From: Clostridia bacterium
GTDB taxonomy: Bacteria > Bacillota > Clostridia > Oscillospirales > Acutalibacteraceae
Direction of reading: 5' to 3'
Assembly (NCBI GenBank): GCA_017520705.1
Contig: JAFXFF010000044.1
Span: forward strand, 60,108 to 124,107
DNA length: 64,000 bases
Shown piece by piece: positions 12,250 through 21,754 of this stretch (position 1 is the stretch's first letter; every line of letters starts with the position of its first letter). The notes under the pieces were generated by a model. It did no database searches, was not told where the DNA came from, and saw only the letters and a list, made by a program, of their open reading frames with translations. Position numbers and translations under genes: made by a program.

Positions 12250-12600
12250 TTGGGATATTATACCCAATTCTATGGGAGGTTGGGCGTCTTGACCGAAAAG
12301 GAACTGCGAAAACTGAACCGATACCAGCTTTTGGAGCTGCTGATGATGCAAACGGAGCAAAACCAGCAGCTCAGGCAGGAGATCGAGCATCTGCGAGAAC
12401 AGCAAATGCGGCTGGAGGAGATGGGCTCGGTGGCAGAGGCATCCCTGCTGCTGAACGGTGTATTTGAGGCGGCGCAAAAGGCTGCCGACGACTATTTGAG
12501 CGAGGCGCGCAACCGTGCACAACGGATCGTAGAGCGTGCCCGTCTGGAGGCGGAGTTATTCAATGAAACGGCAACTGTGGAAACCAAGGACGAAACCTAA
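12250..12600 (+). CDS. Small coiled-coil protein (hypothetical); true start probably TTG ~12280-12290
   Basis: Heptad-rich sequence (LRQEIEHLREQQMRLEE). RBS GGGAGG at ~12272. 3' end overlaps the signal peptidase gene. Confidence 0.35.
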   Translation: MGYYTQFYGRLGVLTEKELRKLNRYQLLELLMMQTEQNQQLRQEIEHLREQQMRLEEMGSVAEASLLLNGVFEAAQKAADDYLSEARNRAQRIVERARLEAELFNETATVETKDET

Positions 12601-13183
12601 GCACACCACCACGGTATCGGACACCCCGGAGCCGGAGGCGTTGCAGCAGGAACTCAAACGGGAACGAAACAAACGCCGATTCCGTAAGCTTTTGCGCAGT
12701 ACGGTCAGCGCTCTCATCGTGGCGGCAGCGGTGGCGGCCATCATCGCCACCATGATCCTGCCGGTATTGCAAATTGCCGGTACCAGTATGGAGCCGACCC
12801 TCTACGACGGGGACATCGTTCTGCTGGTCAAAACCGACAAACTGAAGACCGGTGACCTATGCGCCTTCTATTACTCCAACAAGATACTGATCAAACGGGT
12901 CATCGCGACCCCCGGCGACTACATCTGGATCGAGTCTGACGGCACCGTATTTCTCAACGGAGAAAAATTGGACGAGCCGTATCTCACCGTCAAAGCGCTG
13001 GGCGAATGCGACGTAGAATTCCCTTATCAAGTGCCTGAAAACCACTTCTTTATGATGGGGGATCAACGGGAAACCTCGGTGGACAGCCGCAGCAGCGTCA
13101 TCGGCTGTATCCCCGAAGATCAGGTGATCGGTAAGATACTGTGTAAATTCTGGCCCCTATCCCAATTTAACTGGATGGCATAA
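12563..13183 (+). CDS. lepB: Signal peptidase I (catalytic Ser/Lys retained), immediately upstream of the pilus genes
   Basis: TM helix; GTSMEPTL (Ser box); KRVIATPGD (Lys box); GDQRETSVDSR box E. Confidence 0.8.
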   Translation: MKRQLWKPRTKPKHTTTVSDTPEPEALQQELKRERNKRRFRKLLRSTVSALIVAAAVAAIIATMILPVLQIAGTSMEPTLYDGDIVLLVKTDKLKTGDLCAFYYSNKILIKRVIATPGDYIWIESDGTVFLNGEKLDEPYLTVKALGECDVEFPYQVPENHFFMMGDQRETSVDSRSSVIGCIPEDQVIGKILCKFWPLSQFNWMA

Positions 13184-13213: not shown

Positions 13214-16200
13214 GTGGAAGGCTTGCCGGAACAGTTAACGCAATACATATCCCAACTGAATAAGAGCAATTCCCGCCGTGCAGGCCTCCGCCAGGCGCTG
13301 TTCGCCCTCTCTCTGGTGGCGATACTCATCGTGTTCTGGTGTCTCAAACTGACCGGTATTACGATGGCCGGCGAAGCCTTCTGCGGCAAAGAAGAACACG
13401 TCCACACAGCCGAGTGTACGCAAACGGGATGTGCATTGGAAGAACATATCCACGACCCCACCTGCTACAGCAACGTCCAAATTGACGTAGAGACCGCCGA
13501 TGACTGGGAGCAGACGCTGGCCGGCATCACCCGCGGCGAGACCACGGCAGAGAACGTGGTGGCGGTAGCCACATCCCAACTGGGGTATCGGGAAAGTACG
13601 CAAAACTTCCAAGTGGACGCGAACGGTGTCCGACGGGGCATCACCCGCTACGGACAATGGTACGGCAACCCCTACGGCGACTGGTCGGCCATGTTTGCCT
13701 CCTTCTGCCTGCACTATGCCGGGGTGACCGACCTGCCTGCCAATGCAGGCGCCGAATCCATGCGACTGGAATGGGCAGAGGACGGCCTGTATCGGGCCGC
13801 GGCCCATTACGCACCGCAGGTAGGCGACCTGCTATTCCTCACCGAAAACGGCAGCACCGCCAACGCGGTGGCAATCATCACCGCTGTGAGTGACAGCGGC
13901 ATCACGGTGATACAAGGTGACGTGGAAGATGCCGTCAGCGAGGTAACCTATCCCCTCGACAGCACGCCTATTCTGGGGTACGGCACCGTGCCTGAACAAT
14001 CGGAGCTGACGGTGCTGGCCACCACACCTGACGGTGCCACCGTGGTGGCGCGTACCACCGCCTATTCAGCCGGTATGCTGACGCAGGGAAACAGCTTCGT
14101 CATCTACACCGTCAGCGGCGGCAACTATTACGCCATCGACGGCAGCGGCAACGCGGTGCCTGTGTACATAGAAAACGGCAACATTTTTGCGGATGTGGCA
14201 GATCCCAACACGCTGCTGTGGAATTTCACCGCCAACGGCTCCTCCTACGTTATCCGAAACGTAGGCACGGGGCGTCATCTCCACCCCTTCTACAACAGCA
14301 ATACCGATAACGGCGTCACCACCTCCGGCGGATGGACCACCTCGGTGGTCACCTCCGGCAACGGCGTCAAATTCCGCGCCTCTGCCTATGCCCGCCTAAA
14401 TGCGAGCGGCGGCAATTTCGTGATGACCCGTAACGAACAGGAGGGCACCGTATTCCAGTTTGGTGTGGTCAACAACCGCACCGTCTGGCTGGACGGTACC
14501 TGCGGAGGGATTATGAGCTTGGGCGGCTCCCCCAACACACCCTATACGGTGCTGCAGGGTGACGTCGTGAAACTTCCCACCGAATGGAAATCTCCTGACA
14601 AATACGCATACAAGCTGCGCGGCTGGTACGACGTGACCAACAACCGCTACTATCTGCCCGGTGCAGAGGTGACGGTCACCGACCATATGGTATTCTACGC
14701 CGATTGGACAGCAGAAACCTACGACGTGGGCCAATTCAATTCCCACGTAGCGGAAACCACCAGCACCAACCAGTTTGTCACTGTCCGTATGTTTGACTAC
14801 GGGCCTCTGTTCAACCTCTTATCCACACGAGCCAACGTCACGGTAAACAGCAGCGGACACACCGAGACCTGGAACCTCTTGACCTCCGGAAACAATCCCT
14901 ACAACGGAGATCCTACGCTGAACTTCATCTTCCGTGACTGGGACCGCGGCAACGAGGATATCTCCTATCCCAACGGCACCAATGCGGCTAACAACCCCAC
15001 CGACGCCGGCAGCGTGTATCCGGGACTGTATACGGATAACTTGGGCAGCCTGCTCTTCGACCCCGAATTGCAGGTCCTCGGCAAACAGTATTTGGGTGAG
15101 GGCGATCATCTATTCCAGCTCTGTGTGGATCCCAACGATCCCAATTACGGCTATTACTACTACGATTCCCAGCGCAACGCGGCATCGTATAACCAAAGCG
15201 ACGGACGCTTCTATGTCTACGACTATCTGGAGTGCACCCGCGACTCGCTGAACAACGGTTATGCAGACTTTTTGCCACTGAACTCTCCCTACGCCAATAC
15301 CAATGGCAAGCTCATCCCCACCTACCAATACGGAGGTGTCAACGGTGAATACGACGGTGTGACCCACTATTCGTACGACAGTAAGTACAACACCAACGGC
15401 AACAACACCGACCACGTGGGCGCCAACTACTGGTATGGTATGAGCGTAGACATTCAGTTCTATCTCCCCCACGTCCCCGGTACGATACTGGAAAACGGTC
15501 GATACGGCAACCAGGACCTCTACGGCGGCGATATGCACTTCCATTTCGCCGGCGACGACGACGTATGGGTGCTGGTGGACGGCAAAATGGTGCTGGACCT
15601 GGGCGGTATCCACGGTGTCGAGAACGGCGATATCAACTTCTCCACCGGCGTGGTCACCGTCAACGGCAGGGTGAATACGGCATTGTCCAACACCCTCAAG
15701 AGCATCTAGCCCGGCGAGCACACACTGACCCTCTACTATCTGGAACGCGGTAGTTCCAAATCCAACTGCGCTTTCCGTTTCAATTTGGCGCCCCGATTCA
15801 GCCTCGCCCTTCAAAAAGAGGACGTGCTGACCCGCCACCTGCTCAACGGTGCCCAGTTCTCGGTCTTCACCGACAAAGCCTGCACCCAACCGGCCACCCT
15901 GTGGACCAGCCAGCAGGCCTACTACGCCAACGAGGATCCCAACCACGTATTTACCGTTGTAAACGGTAAAGCCGATATGTGGGGACTCATCGCTGGCGAG
16001 ACCTATTACATCGTGGAGACCAAGCCGCCCGACGCCACCGGCTACATCGGAGCGGACGGCATTATCTGCCTGACCATCGACAAAAACGGTATCGCCTCCT
16101 ACTCGGTGGAGGTGAGGGAGAACGCTGACGGCGAACTTTCGCCCGGTTTCACGGTCCACGGTGTGAAAATTGATGAGGAAACCCAGCAAGCCTTCCTCAT

Positions 16201-17509
16201 CGCCACTAACGCGCCCGAGACCATCACCGAAGCCACCAGCGTGACAGTGAACAAGATCTGGGACGACGACAAGGATCACTCCGCCGATTACATCACGGTG
16301 TATTTGACGGTGACCGACCCCGACGGGACGGTGCGCCGCATCCGTGAAGTGATCCTCAGCGCGGAGAACAACTGGCAGTATACGTGGGAAAACCTTCCCA
16401 AGACCGACGCCGACGGCAACATCGTCCAATACGGCGTCAGCGAATCCACCGTTCCCGGCTACGTGAGTCGGGTTGAGATCACAGAAGGACCGCCGGGAGG
16501 TGACAGCTCCGACGGTGAAGGTAGTGGTCCCGGAGATGTGACAGCGGTGGGGAGCTTCCAAAACGGCCAAACCTATCTGCTGAGCACCAGATTCGGCTGG
16601 CTGACCGCCAACAACAATCAGTTGGGACTGGTCACCAATCAGCAGACTGCCGCCGGCTCCGACAGCGCCCTGTGGGTGGCAACGGTTAACGGTGACGGCA
16701 CCGTCACCCTGACCAACAAACGAGGACAAACCCTCTATTACGACAACTACACCTTCAAGGCAGGCTCCTCACCGGGAACCTACAAAAACCTCCGCTTTGC
16801 GGACAACCGTCTATACTGCTATATCAATCACGGCGGGTGGAGCGAGACGCAATATCCCATTGACGACGACAACGTCCCCAGTAACCTGACCTACAACCAC
16901 GTGTTGTATACCACCAACAACAGTGCACAAGCCCTGGTGATCACACCGCAGGCTCTGGGCGGCAGTCCGCCGGAACCCGAGCCTGAGCCGCCTCCCGACA
17001 GCGGCGGAGGTGACAAACACTTCCAGATCACCAACACGCCGGCAGGCCAGGCCGTCACCTCCCTTACCGTCCATAAGATATGGGATGTAGGCGACCTGGG
17101 AGATGCCTCGCTGTACGAGAAGCTGGTGGTACAAATCCGTCTGCTGGCTAACGGCGTGGACGCCGGCCTTACAGGTCAGCTCAGCCTCAAGAACGGATGG
17201 GTCTACACCTTCCAGGATCTGCCACTATACGACAGTGGCGGTCAAATGGTGGTGTACACCGTGGAGGAACAATTCATCTCGGAGGATTGGATCGTGCACT
17301 ACGGCAACGTCATCTCCTCCGGCGGAAGCAGCCCCACCTACACGGTCAACGTGACCAACACGTACCGAACAGGGGGGCCCATGTTGCCGGCCACCGGCAC
17401 GGCGGCACGTCTGTACTTTGTACTGTGCGGAGCGAGCATCATGCTCGGAACGCTGGTATACGGATTTGCATTGAGGCGTAAGCGTAAGCGAGAAAGGAGG
17501 TTAGAGTAG
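13214..17509 (+). CDS. Giant LPXTG pilus tip adhesin (CHAP/NlpC-like, fibro-slime/PA14-like, beta-trefoil-like, 2x CnaB), interrupted by an in-frame TAG at 15707-15709. Possible pseudogene, phase-off allele or readthrough.
   Basis: Track ORFs 13214..15709 and 15785..17509 are in the same frame; the translation reads …NTLKSI*PGEHTLTLYYLERGSSKSNCAFRFNLAPRF… uninterrupted except for TAG. C-terminus is LPATG + TM + RRKRKRERR. Probable start TTG 13223 after GAGGAGG. Confidence 0.75.
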
Positions 17510-17601: not shown

Positions 17602-19104
17602 ATGAAAAAGATCGTTACTCTGTTACTGGTCCTGGCACTCACCCTGAGCCTGTCCTGCGCGGTTTCTGCCGCTGAGGTCGGTTCCATTACCATCAACAAC
17701 ATTGCCGCCGACACCACCTACGAGATCTACCAGCTGTTGGATCTGGAGAGCTATGACAGCGTCTCCGGTGCCTACTCCTACAAGGTAAACAGTGCCTGGA
17801 CCGCCTACTTCGACACCGCCGAGGCGCAGGCCTACATCACTGTGGATGCCGCCGGCTATGTGACCTGGGTGGCCGGTGAGGACGATGCCACCGTGGCCGC
17901 CTTCGCACAGAAGGCTTTGGCCTATGCCGAGGCCCACAGCATTGCCCCCGTTAAGTCCTCTCAGAATCCCGGCGATTTCGCCATCACCGGTACCACCGGC
18001 GTGTTCTCCGATCTGCCTCTGGGCTACTATCTGGTAGACTCCACCGCCGGCGCCCTGTGCGGCCTGACCACCACCGACCCCGACGCCGCCATCAACGCTA
18101 AGAACGGCGTGCCCACCATCGACAAGCAGGCGCAGGAAGATCTGAGCGGCATGTGGGGCGACCACAACACCGCCGACATCGGCCAGATCGTCAACTTCAT
18201 GACCATCATCCACGCTGCCCCCGGTGCCCAGAACTACGTGATGCACGATACCATGTCTGCCGGTCTGACCTTTGTGCAGGATACCGCCAACGACCGCGGC
18301 GTCACTCAGGTCGTACATATCAACAGCCTGGGTGTGGAAACTGTTCTGACCCCCGGCATCGACTACACCGTCAACGATGCCCCCTCCGATAGCTGTACCT
18401 TTGAAGTGGCTCTGACCGAAAGCTTCATCGGCACCCTGAAGGCCAACGACCGCATCATCACCTACTACAACGCCATGCTGAACCGTCACGCCATCGCCGC
18501 CGGCGATGGTAACCCCAACGAGAGCTGGCTGGAGTACGGCGAAGAGAAGTACACCACCCACGATCAGACCAAGACCTACACTTTCTCCATTGACATTGTT
18601 AAGACCGATTCCTCCAACAAGCTGATCGACGGCGCTAAGTTCAAGATCTACGACGCCGCCACCGACGGCAACGAGATCAAGGTCGTGCCCCTGAAGGAGG
18701 CCGACGACGTGACTCCCGTGCTGGATGCCAACGGCAACCCCGTCTATCGCCGTGCCCGTGCCGACGAGGAAGGTGTGGAGATCGAGGTCGTCGACGGTAA
18801 GGTGACCGTGGTGGGCTTTGACAATGGTGTCTACTATCTGGAGGAGACCGCTGCCCCCGCCGGTTACAACAAGCTGACCGCCCGTAAGGAGTTCACCATC
18901 GCCGACGCCAACCTGGATTCCGTCTTCAGCGGCGGCATCTACTCCACCGGTTCCGGCGTGCACGTGGTCAACAAGACCGGTACCATGCTGCCTGAGACCG
19001 GCGGCGTGGGCACTGTCATCTTCGTAGTGCTGGGTACCCTGGCCGTGCTGGGTGCCGGCGTGCTGCTGGTGACCAAGAAGAGAATGGCTATGATCCAGGA
19101 GTAA
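17602..19104 (+). CDS. Major pilin (SpaA-like) with E-box and LPETG sorting signal
   Basis: Signal peptide; E-box YYLEETAAPAGYNKL; LPETGG + TM + KKR tail. Confidence 0.85.
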   Translation: MKKIVTLLLVLALTLSLSCAVSAAEVGSITINNIAADTTYEIYQLLDLESYDSVSGAYSYKVNSAWTAYFDTAEAQAYITVDAAGYVTWVAGEDDATVAAFAQKALAYAEAHSIAPVKSSQNPGDFAITGTTGVFSDLPLGYYLVDSTAGALCGLTTTDPDAAINAKNGVPTIDKQAQEDLSGMWGDHNTADIGQIVNFMTIIHAAPGAQNYVMHDTMSAGLTFVQDTANDRGVTQVVHINSLGVETVLTPGIDYTVNDAPSDSCTFEVALTESFIGTLKANDRIITYYNAMLNRHAIAAGDGNPNESWLEYGEEKYTTHDQTKTYTFSIDIVKTDSSNKLIDGAKFKIYDAATDGNEIKVVPLKEADDVTPVLDANGNPVYRRARADEEGVEIEVVDGKVTVVGFDNGVYYLEETAAPAGYNKLTARKEFTIADANLDSVFSGGIYSTGSGVHVVNKTGTMLPETGGVGTVIFVVLGTLAVLGAGVLLVTKKRMAMIQE

Positions 19105-19215: not shown

Positions 19216-20052
19216 ATGCTGAGCAAAAAAGCGACAATCCTATTGCTGGTCTTCTTTTTCATAGGTTTGTCCGTGCTGTTGTATCCCAGCATCAGCAGCT
19301 ACTGGAACTCCAAGACCCAGAGTGAGGCCATTGTAGACTACGAGGAGATGCTGGCCAACTACAAGCCGGAGGACCGCACCGCCCTCTTTGAAGCCGCCGA
19401 CGCCTACAATCAAAAGCTGGCGGCACTATTCCAGCCCCTGCAGGAGTATGGGGCACTATCCGAGGAATACTGGAAAACGCTGGACGTCACCGGAACGGGC
19501 ATGATGGGGTACATCACCATACCCAAAATCAGTCAAGAGCTGCCCGTCTACCACGGCACCTCAGATGCGGTGCTGGGTAAATCGGTGGGCCATCTGCAGG
19601 GCTCCAGCCTGCCGGTGGGCGGTGTCAGCACCCACAGCGTGGTATCCGCCCATCGCGGACTGCCCTCGGCGGTGCTGTTTACCCACCTGGATCGCATGGA
19701 GGTGGGCGACACCTTTTCCTTCACCATCCTGGACCGCACCTTTACCTATGAGGTGGATCAGATCCGCATCGTGGAGCCGGACGACACCAATCTGCTCCGC
19801 TTAGAGACGGGCAAGGACTACTGCACCCTGCTGACCTGCACCCCCTACGGTATCAACACCCAGCGTCTGCTGGTACGAGGTCACCAGATCGACGCCAGCC
19901 AAAAGAGCAATCTCTACATCGCCAATGAAGCCTATCGGGTGGACACCCTCATCGTCACACCCTTGGTGGCGCTGCCCATCATTTTGGCCCTGCTCATCTA
20001 CGTGATGCTGGCCCCCGTCAAGAAAGAACAGTTAGGAGAGGATACGCTATGA
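19216..20052 (+). CDS. srtC: Class C (pilus-polymerising) sortase
   Basis: N-terminal TM; HRGLP (His); TLLTCTPYG (Cys); LLVRGH (Arg); C-terminal TM lid/anchor. Confidence 0.9.
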   Translation: MLSKKATILLLVFFFIGLSVLLYPSISSYWNSKTQSEAIVDYEEMLANYKPEDRTALFEAADAYNQKLAALFQPLQEYGALSEEYWKTLDVTGTGMMGYITIPKISQELPVYHGTSDAVLGKSVGHLQGSSLPVGGVSTHSVVSAHRGLPSAVLFTHLDRMEVGDTFSFTILDRTFTYEVDQIRIVEPDDTNLLRLETGKDYCTLLTCTPYGINTQRLLVRGHQIDASQKSNLYIANEAYRVDTLIVTPLVALPIILALLIYVMLAPVKKEQLGEDTL

Positions 20053-20954
20053 CAAAACGAATACTTGCGTGTGTGCTGGCGGTATTCTGCCTGCTGATGC
20101 CTCTGTCGGTGCAGGCGGAGGAATTGAACACCGAGCAGCTGTGCAATCTGACGCTGGAATATTCCCACGAGGGGGTGGCCTTTGCCGATGTGGAAGTGGC
20201 TATCTATCGGGTGGCAGAAGCGCATACGGACGGCTCCTACGACCTCATCGCGCCCTATGACGCATACTCCGTCAACATCCACGGCATCACCTCCCAAAAG
20301 GAATGGCAGGACGTGGCGGCTACCTTAACCGCCTATATTACCGCCAACGGGGTCGAACCCACCGCGAGCGGAGTCACCGACAAGGCGGGCGAGGTGGTTT
20401 TGAGCGACTTGCCCGTAGGATTGTACCTCGTACAAGGTGCCCGTGCCGAAAATGAAAAGGGCACCTACGTATTCCGCGAGTTTATGATCTACCTGCCCAC
20501 GCCTGCAGAGGACGGCACCTACCAATACGATCTGCGTGCGAAGCCCAAATGCCACCAGTACACCCCCACCGAAAACTATCGGGTGGTGAAACTGTGGAAG
20601 GACACGGGTAGCGCCCTGCGCCCCGATGAGGTGGTGGTGGACATCTACAAGAACGGTGCGCTCCACGAGACGGTGTCGCTGAATGGAAACAACGGCTGGA
20701 GCTATGAATGGACCGACAAGGAACAAGCGCGGTGGCAGGTGACAGAGCGGGACGTGCCGGAGGGCTATCAGGTATCCGTCACCAACCACGAGACGGTATT
20801 TACCATCACCAACGCAAACCCCGACGCTCCTCCCCCGCCACCCGCTACGGGGGACAGCTTCCCTTGGCTGATGTGGGTTGTGATCGTATGTCTGGTGGGC
20901 TTTGCGCTGGTGCTGGTGGCTCTGTGGGGACGACGATATGAAAAGACGAAATAA
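20049..20954 (+). CDS. Minor/basal pilin with CnaB-type domain and non-canonical PPATG sorting signal
   Basis: Signal peptide; YRVVKLWKD… CnaB fold; PPPPATGDSFPW + TM + GRRYEKTK. Confidence 0.7.
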   Translation: MTKRILACVLAVFCLLMPLSVQAEELNTEQLCNLTLEYSHEGVAFADVEVAIYRVAEAHTDGSYDLIAPYDAYSVNIHGITSQKEWQDVAATLTAYITANGVEPTASGVTDKAGEVVLSDLPVGLYLVQGARAENEKGTYVFREFMIYLPTPAEDGTYQYDLRAKPKCHQYTPTENYRVVKLWKDTGSALRPDEVVVDIYKNGALHETVSLNGNNGWSYEWTDKEQARWQVTERDVPEGYQVSVTNHETVFTITNANPDAPPPPPATGDSFPWLMWVVIVCLVGFALVLVALWGRRYEKTK

Positions 20955-21501
20955 GTGGATACTGTGGGCGGGTGTAGCCCTCATTGCCGTCAGCCTGTGT
21001 GCGGCGGCGGTGTTCGGCCTGCTCCAGCGACGCGGCGAGCGACAGGCGGCGGACATCGCACGGCAAATCGAGGCGGCACTGCCGCCCCGCACCGTGGGCG
21101 CGGAAGAGGCCTACAGCGTGATGCAGATGCCTGCCCTGAGCATTGAGGGCGAGGACTTTGTGGGGCTGGTGGAGATCCCCGCCTACGGGGTCACGCTGCC
21201 CCTCTGTGACGAGTGGCAGCCTACCCAGCTGAACCGCTATCCCTGCCGCTTTTGGGGTACGGCGTATGACGGCAGTCTCATCATCGGCGGCGGTGCCAAA
21301 CAGTTTGCCTGCCTCGGGCAGATACAAAACGGCGACGAGGTGCGGGTGACGGATATGCAAGGGGCGGTGTTCACCTACACCGTGACCCGTATCCGCCGTA
21401 CCGACCACGCGGATGCAAAGACACTTAAAAATGAAGCGTCACTCACGCTGTTTGCGCGGGACGGAGCCAATATGGAGTATATTATAGTAGAATGTATGTA
21501 A
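20938..21501 (+). CDS. Sortase-fold protein lacking the His-Cys-Arg catalytic triad (degenerate sortase paralog)
   Basis: N-terminal TM. Aligns block-by-block with the srtC product (LVEIPAYGVTLPL ~ ITIPKISQELPVY; FTYTVTRIRR ~ FTYEVDQIRI), but HRG becomes GGGAKQ, TLLTC becomes TLFARD, and the protein ends before the Arg. Confidence 0.55.
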   Translation: MKRRNKWILWAGVALIAVSLCAAAVFGLLQRRGERQAADIARQIEAALPPRTVGAEEAYSVMQMPALSIEGEDFVGLVEIPAYGVTLPLCDEWQPTQLNRYPCRFWGTAYDGSLIIGGGAKQFACLGQIQNGDEVRVTDMQGAVFTYTVTRIRRTDHADAKTLKNEASLTLFARDGANMEYIIVECM

Positions 21502-21502
21502 A

Positions 21503-21542
21503 AAAATAACCGCAACCTCTGTGAGGTTGCGGTTATTTTTCG
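21503..21542 (+). terminator. Intrinsic terminator ending the pilus operon
   Basis: aaaaaaataaccgcaacctc-tgtg-aggttgcggttatttttcg. Confidence 0.75.
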
Positions 21543-21754
21543 TGTAGGAATCATCGCGCATCTTCCTCACGCCACGCAAAAAGGGTCGGCCGGGATAGAC
21601 GCCGAGAGATGCTGGACGGTCAAAACCCTTAGTTTGCGCTATGCGCAAACTAAGGGGGCAAGTCCATACCTCCCGAGCCAAGTAAAAAGACCCGCCATAA
21701 TGTGGCGGGTCTTTTTACTTGGGAATAACGAACAGGTTTAATAGAATGCCAAAA

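Follow-up and report, generated by a model that had tools for sequence, protein, structure and literature searches.

The 64,000-nucleotide stretch of Clostridia bacterium DNA analysed here (contig JAFXFF010000044.1, positions 60,108 to 124,107; hereafter the window) contains a pilus operon whose last gene encodes a sortase-fold protein that is devoid of the catalytic His-Cys-Arg triad. A preliminary description of the window, made from the sequence alone, had put this protein forward as a pseudo-sortase. That central claim stands, as neither a triad at shifted positions nor the frameshifted remnant of a normal sortase was found. The gene overlaps that of a Cna_B-domain pilin located directly upstream, which we term "basal" in view of its size, its place in the operon, and the distinct sorting signal that it carries, and whose role in the pilus is presumed from these features. 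The pseudo-sortase is under purifying selection, and its gene occupies a conserved slot that is translationally coupled to the basal pilin gene. In homologous operons, the sorting signal of the basal pilin switches according to whether this slot is filled by a triad-less protein or by a triad-bearing relative. Judging from these sequence patterns, we consider the chances about even that the pseudo-sortase is a non-catalytic descendant of a basal-pilin sortase which has been retained as a regulatory partner or as a partner that binds the pilin or its signal.

Sortase fold of the pseudo-sortase

The pseudo-sortase matched the Pfam Sortase family (PF04203) with 36.1 bits (cut-off 26.6) over positions 1–104 of the 125 positions of the profile; for many members of the pseudo-sortase family, a precomputed PF04203 match is missing. 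By BLASTP, the protein was 26% identical to the product of the adjacent class C sortase gene over 155 amino acids (aa) with an E-value of 6e-5, and comparison of the pseudo-sortase family profile with a class C profile by hhalign yielded a probability of 97%. A structural model was computed by AlphaFold2 using 30 homologues as input and reached a predicted local distance difference test score (pLDDT) of 88.7 and a predicted template modelling score (pTM) of 0.80. The model starts with a long N-terminal helix at residues 2–47, which includes the membrane anchor, followed by a beta-barrel. Strands were assigned to residues 67–69, 72–80, 85–90, 103–106, 114–118, 134–139, 143–155, 169–174, and 181–186. 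When this model was used as a query in Foldseek, the top matches were sortases throughout. The protein thus has the eight-stranded beta-barrel fold of sortases, and the sortase fold proposed in the preliminary description is borne out by the Pfam match above threshold, the profile comparison, the modelled barrel, and the structural matches.

Assignment to one of the sortase classes was not obtained. Scores against the NCBIfam class models were all far below the respective cut-offs, with 20.6 bits for class C (NF033745, cut-off 160) and 20.4 and 22.4 bits for the class D models NF033746 (cut-off 165) and NF058671 (cut-off 140). SrtD was weakly matched by 19 of 40 members of the pseudo-sortase family, the best E-value being 6e-8. 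In addition, the protein ends one residue past strand beta8 and has no C-terminal hydrophobic segment. By fold and Pfam match the pseudo-sortase is therefore a member of the sortase superfamily, but it belongs to neither class C nor class D. It had initially been regarded as a paralog of the adjacent class C sortase. This holds at the level of the superfamily; beyond that, the protein is closer to another clade of small sortases (E = 2e-18, see below) and lacks the C-terminal anchor of class C enzymes.

Loss of the catalytic triad

In profile alignments, the segment SLIIGGG was positioned opposite I-A-G-H of Staphylococcus aureus SrtA and V-I-S-G-H-R of Ebp SrtC, while LTLFARD was positioned opposite LTLITCD. 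The slot of the lost His corresponds to Gly119 in the alignment with a triad-bearing sister clade and to Gly118 in one profile alignment. The clearest register was provided by the triad-bearing relatives, in which LVICGHNYARHF stands opposite LIIGGG--AKQF, placing the His at Gly119. The Cys motif TLxTC reads TLFAR, with Arg174 at the position of the Cys. Replacement of both motifs, as proposed earlier, was accordingly confirmed. In contrast, the protein does not end before the region of the catalytic Arg, as had been assumed. Strand beta8 (residues 181–186, YIIVEC) is present, and its alignment is gap-free both with ARYALRC in the triad-bearing relatives and with QRLLVRG in class C sortases. 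In the former alignment ARYALRC is opposite EYIIVEC, seven residues past the Cys slot, and it is Tyr181 that fills the slot of the Arg.

These replacements are a property of the family. In an alignment of 299 distinct members (174–225 aa, median 194 aa, identity down to 26%), the canonical His/Cys arrangement did not occur in any member when positions 118, 119, and 174 were tabulated. Position 118 is mostly Gly (210 members) or Ala (70), and position 119 is occupied by Ser (117), Thr (74), Ala (38), or Gly (15). At position 174, Arg (137) and Lys (117) together account for 254 members, followed by Gln (15), Glu (12), Pro (4), and His (3). Position 181 is Tyr in 283 members and position 186 is Cys in the same number; Gly117 (274 members) and Gln122 (282 members) are conserved as well. 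Conversely, H119, C174, and R181 were each found in 14 of 14 triad-bearing relatives and in none of 32 distinct loci with a triad-less protein.

No conserved catalytic Cys or His was detected at shifted positions. The sole His of the window protein, H157, is not conserved, and the family is without any conserved His; its only conserved cysteines are C103 and C186. Cys103 (PCRF; 21244–21246) is kept in 79% of the triad-less family, and the triad-bearing clade has Gly there. It was rejected as a substitute nucleophile on the basis of this limited occurrence. Cys186, within the C-terminal motif V-[R/E]-C, is kept in 95% of the triad-less family. It was likewise rejected, as it lies at the distal end of strand beta8 and every triad-bearing sister enzyme has it; its equal conservation in that clade marks it as an ancestral residue and not as a replacement nucleophile. 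A Cys at position 173 (LTLFC) or a His near position 121 (GGxDH) was observed in a few members, but such cases are isolated and fall within the triad-less clade. Two members inside this clade, P0045 and P0054, have both LTLFC, with the Cys one position early, and GGADH, with the His two to three positions late; this combination probably arose by chance.

With Gly, Arg or Lys, and Tyr in the three catalytic slots, the pseudo-sortase is predicted to be incapable of sortase chemistry. One might still envision an enzyme with a rewired site (Lys/Arg174, Asp/Asn175, Tyr181, Gln122, and Tyr110/Asp111) that performs another reaction on the basal pilin or on the cell wall. The substituted positions are strongly conserved and do not drift, and the same question has been raised in the literature on SipA, a pseudoenzyme of streptococcal pilus loci that is considered below. 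However, the site is devoid of a conserved Cys, Ser, or Thr nucleophile. Arg and Lys interchange at position 174, where roughly 10% of the members have Gln, Glu, or Pro instead; this is unlike a catalytic residue. The location of Cys186 and the sporadic nature of the Cys173 and His121 cases also argue against such an enzyme, and we regard this explanation as very unlikely.

Family size and selection

Homologues were collected in two ways. A word-indexed search recovered 29 clusters with members of 174–199 aa and identities down to 37%, and an exhaustive profile search covered 1.84 billion representatives. The latter returned 2,887 proteins at E≤1e-3; at E≤1e-10 there were still 2,254 clusters, with sequences of about 190 aa, and at E≤1e-30 there were 232. 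Most of the 150 best matches had lengths of 185–210 aa, apart from a few shorter fragments. With genuine sortases, the family profile gave scores of only 14–22 bits, which in a database of that size would mean E>10, and the profile matches therefore represent a distinct family of at least about 2,000 clusters. At NCBI, its members are labelled either "sortase" or "hypothetical protein".

To distinguish selection from decay, the window gene was compared with that of locus L026, the product of which is 78% identical. The ratio of nonsynonymous to synonymous substitution rates (dN/dS) was 0.19 at a dS of 0.66, i.e., the gene is under purifying selection. In the same comparison, dN/dS was 0.14–0.23 for the pilins and 0.07 for both srtC and the signal peptidase gene. 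A functionless, decaying or frameshifted sortase remnant would account for the absence of all three catalytic residues, and the tip adhesin gene of the window operon does contain a nonsense codon (see below). Yet the low dN/dS, the conserved length, the substitutions shared by 299 homologues, the number of clusters, and the clade-specific conservation are all at odds with decay, and the single apparent frameshift that was seen lies in the triad-bearing clade (L082). A remnant in this sense is hence exceedingly improbable, and the frameshift origin considered in the preliminary description was ruled out.

The pattern of conservation differs between the two clades. Residues W93, P102, R104, G107, D139, Y147, L169, F172, R185, and C186 are conserved in both and constitute the ancestral scaffold. 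Y110, D111, G117, T138, G142, K/R174, and Y181 are conserved in the triad-less clade only. By sequence register, several of the latter map to the ends of strands beta4 and beta7, to where beta8 begins, and to the loop between beta3 and beta4. In SrtA-type sortases, these elements make up the catalytic end of the groove that accommodates the sorting signal. The residues that replaced the catalytic ones are among the most conserved of the protein, while a useless site should drift; we therefore argue that the old groove may still have a function.

A triad-bearing sister clade occupies the same slot

Using the class C sortase as bait in a metagenome scan, 80 further loci were obtained, 36 of which extend at least 1.9 kb downstream of srtC. 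These 36 fell into three groups of operons. In the first, the slot after the basal pilin gene is occupied by a member of the triad-less family, and the pilin signal is of the type xPxTG[D/E][T/S] (PPATGDS, PPQTGDT, SPKTGDT, PPKTGES, and others). In the second, the slot holds a homologue of 200–230 aa with the motifs LVI[AC]GH, TLFTC, and ARxA[LV]RC, and the signal is L[P/I/V]xTGQ[L/M] (LPQTGQL, LPYTGQL, LIQTGQL, or LVHTGQM). In the third, no small sortase is encoded within about 5.9 kb, and the signal is LPQTGQL.

The small homologues of the second group scored 100–134 bits against the pseudo-sortase family profile and aligned to the solved SrtA structures of Streptococcus mutans and Bacillus anthracis with His, Cys, and Arg all matched. 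From these alignments we take them to be bona fide sortases. They remained below every NCBIfam class cut-off and reached the generic model TIGR01076 marginally. Examples are found at L041 (7754–8380), L043 (8066–8725), L045 (7522–8208), L073 (7623–8312), and L103 (7709–8299). At L082 (7452–8115), the gene appears to be split into two overlapping frames, by either a frameshift or a sequencing error. These proteins probably constitute an unnamed class of sortases dedicated to the basal pilin. They share with the pseudo-sortase the slot directly after the Cna_B basal pilin gene, the N-terminal anchor, and the minimal barrel, and differ from it in having kept His, Cys, and Arg and in the signal of the accompanying pilin.

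The window protein was 27% identical to this group by BLASTP, with the E-value of 2e-18 given above, as compared to 6e-5 for its own class C neighbour. In a neighbor-joining tree, which carries no support values and is indicative only, the triad-less proteins formed one clade with the triad-bearing small sortases as sister and class C outside. Homology and shared position thus place the triad-less clade, which consists mostly of sequences from metagenome-assembled genomes (MAGs) of gut Oscillospirales, as a descendant or sister of the triad-bearing small sortase of the same slot.

The sorting signal of the basal pilin changes with the loss of the triad

The sorting signal of the window basal pilin is atypical and lies within the sequence DAPPPPPATGDSFPW. 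The pattern xPxTG[DE][TS] was found in the basal pilins of L001, L007, L009–L038, and L048–L056, and the Leu of the usual LPxTG motif is mostly gone. In contrast, the major and tip pilins of operons with a triad-less protein retain LPxTG[G/A/T/S]. Among the readable loci, there was no exception to the split between L[P/I/V]xTGQ[L/M] with a triad-bearing protein and xPxTG[D/E][T/S] with a triad-less one. Loss of the Leu was considered as the defining change of the signal and rejected, as L021 retains LPDTGDS. The constant difference is Asp or Glu versus Gln directly after TG. In about 1.1 Mb of sampled contigs, a sample that is biased towards pilus loci, signals with TG[D/E] occurred almost exclusively on the pilin adjoining the pseudo-sortase. 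At L037, a protein of approximately 166 aa with a signal peptide and the signal PPNTGDD is encoded at 652–1173, upstream of the pilus genes. As this small secreted protein is not a pilin, signals of the TGD type also occur outside the Cna_B pilins.

The pilus operon and its variants

The operon comprises, in this order, genes for a small coiled-coil protein, a type I signal peptidase, the tip adhesin, the major pilin, the class C sortase, the Cna_B pilin, and the pseudo-sortase (Table 1). Apart from the two encoded in the operon, no sortase was found within the 64 kb of the window. The order from signal peptidase to pseudo-sortase recurs in about 20 distinct loci with 35–78% identity in the pseudo-sortase. 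Contigs with a title belong to MAGs of Oscillospiraceae, Oscillibacter, Faecousia, Acutalibacteraceae, and Ruminococcus from animal and human guts. Across these loci, the tip adhesin has 1,270–1,540 aa, the signal of the major pilin is LPETGG or LPSTGG, and the Cna_B pilin has about 300–360 aa. Typical Oscillospirales-type pilus operons with a triad-less sortase homologue were also observed on contigs titled as a Collinsella sp. MAG (L016) and as Bacteroides faecis (L019). Mis-binning is the likely explanation for both assignments, with some room for horizontal transfer in the case of Collinsella.

Table 1. Features of the pilus operon and of the pseudo-sortase in the window
Feature	Position	Strand	Basis or remarks
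Small coiled-coil open reading frame (ORF), 116 aa, 5' of the signal peptidase gene	12250–12600	+	tblastn: same place in 18 loci
Type I signal peptidase, Ser (GTSMEPT) and Lys (IKRV) motifs intact	12536–13183	+	TIGR02227, 130.5 bits; in the operon in about 20 loci
Tip adhesin, fibro-slime-like domain and Cna_B stalk, signal LPATGT, in-frame TAG	13214–17509	+	
Major (backbone) pilin, SpaH/EbpB family, signal LPETGG	17602–19104	+	NCBIfam NF033902, 107.7 bits (cut-off 95)
Class C sortase, intact, His146, Cys208, Arg217	19216–20052	+	NCBIfam class_C_sortase, 263 bits (cut-off 160); triad invariant in alignment
Cna_B/SpaA-type "basal" pilin, 301 aa	20049–20954	+	Pfam Cna_B and SpaA; directly 5' of the pseudo-sortase gene in nearly all loci
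Atypical P-A-T-G-D sorting signal in the basal pilin (within PPPPPATGDS), with a hydrophobic segment and RRYEKTK after it	20841–20855	+	
Pseudo-sortase gene, triad-less sortase-fold protein, 187 aa	20938–21501	+	ATG start, TAA end
N-terminal membrane anchor, residues ~7–29 (WILWAGVALIAVSLCAAAVFGLL), after MKRRNK	20956–21024	+	Sequence reading; AlphaFold2 helix
Former His slot, Gly117-Gly118-Gly119, end of beta4 (SLIIGGG; [AC]-G-H in the sister clade)	21286–21294	+	Alignments to SrtA, Ebp SrtC, and triad-bearing relatives
Former Cys slot, Arg174 (TLFAR in place of TLFTC/TLLTC)	21457–21459	+	Alignments
Former Arg slot, Tyr181, first residue of beta8	21478–21480	+	Ungapped TLFTC(+7)R versus TLFAR(+7)Y; shared C-terminal R-C
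Conserved C-terminal Cys186	21493–21495	+	Cys in 283/299 members and 14/14 triad-bearing relatives
Terminator hairpin at the operon end, 18-bp stem between an A-run and a U-run	21502–21540	+	Folding: −26 kcal/mol, z −7.6

The longest mechanically called ORF at the pseudo-sortase locus opens at a TTG codon at 20902. We favour the ATG at 20938, since all homologues open with M-[KR]-[KR] directly before the hydrophobic helix; a GGGGA sequence sits 8 nucleotides (nt) 5' of this ATG. The resulting product is identical to the NCBI entry MBR3779529.1 ("MAG: sortase [Clostridia bacterium]"). The overlap with the basal pilin gene, previously estimated at ~17 nt, is exactly 17 nt, and overlaps of 17 or 4 nt between the two genes were seen again across homologous loci. 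Together with a 4-nt overlap between srtC and the basal pilin gene, overlapping stops and starts chain srtC, the basal pilin gene, and the pseudo-sortase gene.

The terminator hairpin following the pseudo-sortase gene was overlooked in a simple terminator scan because its stem uses part of the T-run. Two more long and near-perfect hairpins are located further downstream on the forward strand, at about 21626–21657 and 21678–21722, in the intergenic stretch 21541–21730, which as a whole folds at −91 kcal/mol (z −8.4). An Rfam search of the intergenic region 3' of the operon returned no family at threshold and weak, terminator-like matches.

Several loci deviate from the common arrangement. At L015, only the pair of basal pilin and pseudo-sortase genes is present, and at L016 this pair is located 4 kb away from srtC. 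At L004–L006, the pilus operon is otherwise gone, while the pseudo-sortase ORF is intact and overlaps the 3' stub of a pilin gene by 17 nt. This stub (L004, 9712–10017; the same in L005 and L006) has about 70 codons and encodes NSFVLTNVY and, further on, APLTGDT followed by a membrane segment. The homologue at these loci had been considered as standing alone and hence as evidence against a link to pili, which was rejected because the truncated 3' end of the basal pilin gene is retained. On the basis of these variants, the Cna_B basal pilin gene is the most persistent neighbour of the pseudo-sortase gene.

The TAG codon in the tip adhesin gene is located at 15707–15709. In L026, a relative with 89% identity, this codon is CAG (Gln), and in all other loci the gene is one uninterrupted ORF, with lengths of 1,428–1,537 aa recorded in relatives. 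The TAG could stem from a real nonsense mutation, which would leave the pilus defective or without a tip, from variation within the population, or from an error of the MAG assembly. The pilus may thus be defective in the window genome although the pseudo-sortase gene is intact. The small coiled-coil protein encoded at the start of the operon has no signal peptide, and no Pfam family passed the threshold; it is a conserved, uncharacterised member of the operon.

Relation to known pilus components

Like the adjacent enzyme, Ebp SrtC, and SrtC-1 of Streptococcus pneumoniae, the pseudo-sortase has the superfamily fold and is encoded within a pilus operon. It differs from these class C sortases by the absence of the triad and of the C-terminal anchor, and its identity to the neighbouring enzyme is only 26%. 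The minimal sortases of classes A, D, and E, such as SrtA of Lactobacillus rhamnosus (7cfj) and Listeria monocytogenes (5hu4), SrtD of Clostridium perfringens (4d70), and SrtE1 of Streptomyces coelicolor (5cuw), are active Cys/His/Arg transpeptidases, unlike the pseudo-sortase.

The closest precedent appears to be one of logic and not of ancestry. SipA (SipA/LepA) of the FCT pilus loci of Streptococcus pyogenes is a signal-peptidase-like pseudoenzyme that is essential for pilus polymerisation (PMC4049620). As in the case of the pseudo-sortase, the gene lies in a pilus operon, and its membrane-anchored product has kept the fold and the peptide cleft of an enzyme and lost the catalytic residues. 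SipA is, however, of S26 signal peptidase ancestry, and its fold is unrelated to that of sortases; the pseudo-sortase has no homology to S26 peptidases. In contrast to the streptococcal SipA loci, the S26 peptidase of the window operon keeps its Ser and Lys motifs, and the dead enzyme is the sortase homologue. The pseudo-sortase nevertheless qualifies as a pilus-operon pseudoenzyme, i.e., a protein from a sortase-dependent pilus operon with the fold kept and the catalytic residues lost. In the full-text literature that we covered, which is incomplete, no description of a triad-less sortase paralogue was found. The family is thus provisionally regarded as undescribed, in agreement with the preliminary description.

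A possible role in basal pilin incorporation and anchoring

How might a sortase without catalytic residues act in pilus assembly? The proposals that it serves as a chaperone, a signal-binding regulator, or a decoy appear more plausible in light of the pairing with the basal pilin and the correlated change of the sorting signal. The pseudo-sortase is a single-pass membrane protein with a minimal sortase beta-barrel as its extracellular domain. We propose a model in which its ancestor was a sortase dedicated to processing the basal pilin. Catalysis would have been lost, and the barrel with its remodelled former active-site groove would have been selected as a non-catalytic partner of the pilin. 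Translational coupling would supply pilin and pseudo-sortase in matched amounts. At the membrane, the pseudo-sortase could bind the re-coded xPxTG[D/E][T/S] signal or the pilin itself. By holding the signal and not cleaving it, the pseudo-sortase may then determine when the class C sortase attaches the pilin to the growing shaft and when the pilin proceeds to anchoring, and would thus act as a holdase or gatekeeper of pilus termination and anchoring. A more specific version of this proposal is that the protein represents the first pseudo-sortase, a sortase barrel that has become a non-catalytic receptor and has co-evolved with xPxTG[D/E], capping or presenting the signal and thereby setting termination and the choice between hand-over to the wall and tethering to the membrane. 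We put this version forward tentatively, as possible but far from established.

Several observations weigh against a partnership with the basal pilin or its signal. The link between signal and loss of catalysis is correlative and, with two clades, amounts to essentially one evolutionary event. A general pairing of Arg or Lys at position 174 with the acidic residue after TG was considered and rejected, since the TGD signal is accompanied by Glu at this position in L029 and by Gln in L026. The position of the clade-specific residues on the former substrate groove is suggested by sequence register and not by distances. Adjacency to the pilin gene is not obligatory, as the divergent loci L029 and L030 carry the pseudo-sortase gene straight after srtC with the Cna_B pilin gene 2 kb downstream. 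The operons with LPQTGQL and without a small sortase nearby demonstrate that this type of pilus manages without the slot. Finally, the signal on the non-pilin protein of L037 hints that the TGD motif may belong to another, housekeeping sortase.

The last two points bear on a different explanation, according to which the pseudo-sortase is a scaffold unrelated to sorting signals that positions the pilus base, e.g., by binding lipid II or peptidoglycan, while a housekeeping sortase has taken over anchoring. PPNTGDD on a protein that is not a pilin would be expected of a housekeeping motif used throughout the genome, and operons without the slot do exist. However, the near-restriction of TG[D/E] signals to the adjoining pilin in the sampled contigs, albeit in a biased sample, does not fit a housekeeping motif, and such a scaffold does not account for the close translational coupling with the pilin gene. 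We consider this scaffold function unlikely.

The pseudo-sortase may instead be a partner or regulator of the class C sortase, either by pairing with SrtC, by acting as an LPxTG decoy that slows polymerisation, or by shielding a membrane component from the signal peptidase. The operon of the pseudo-sortase always includes one class C sortase gene along with one for an intact signal peptidase, the arrangement at L029 and L030 places its gene next to srtC, and the chain of overlapping stops and starts includes srtC. A precedent for such shielding is provided by the relationship of SafA, SrtA, and LepB2 in Actinomyces (PMC9282373). On the other hand, it is the basal pilin gene and not srtC that stays most tightly and persistently associated with the pseudo-sortase gene, as seen at L015, L016, and L004, and what changes along with the loss of catalysis is the basal pilin signal, neither srtC nor the LPETGG of the major pilin. 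A function directed primarily at SrtC is therefore rather unlikely, and a non-catalytic partner of the basal pilin remains our preferred interpretation.

Implications

Sortase-dependent pili are usually described as being composed of pilins and assembled by active sortases, i.e., a class C polymerase and an anchoring sortase. To our knowledge, SipA in streptococci is the sole known non-catalytic accessory of such pili. Pseudo-sortases, encoded as they are in pilus operons of abundant gut commensals, would be the second case, independent of SipA, in which pilus assembly has recruited a dead enzyme. The family can be seen as a branch of pseudoenzymes within the sortases that occupies a defined genomic niche, and its members should be filed neither as sortase enzymes nor under class C. 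The label "sortase" in public annotation leads to inflated enzyme counts and sortase-substrate predictions for Oscillospirales. The series of operons with a triad-bearing, a triad-less, or an absent slot protein, together with a signal that changes in step, provides natural controls by which an old question of the field becomes testable, namely how the incorporation of the basal pilin, and with it termination and anchoring, is controlled. If true, a role of the pseudo-sortase as a receptor for the basal pilin signal would add a regulatory layer to Gram-positive pilus assembly that is widespread in gut Oscillospirales.

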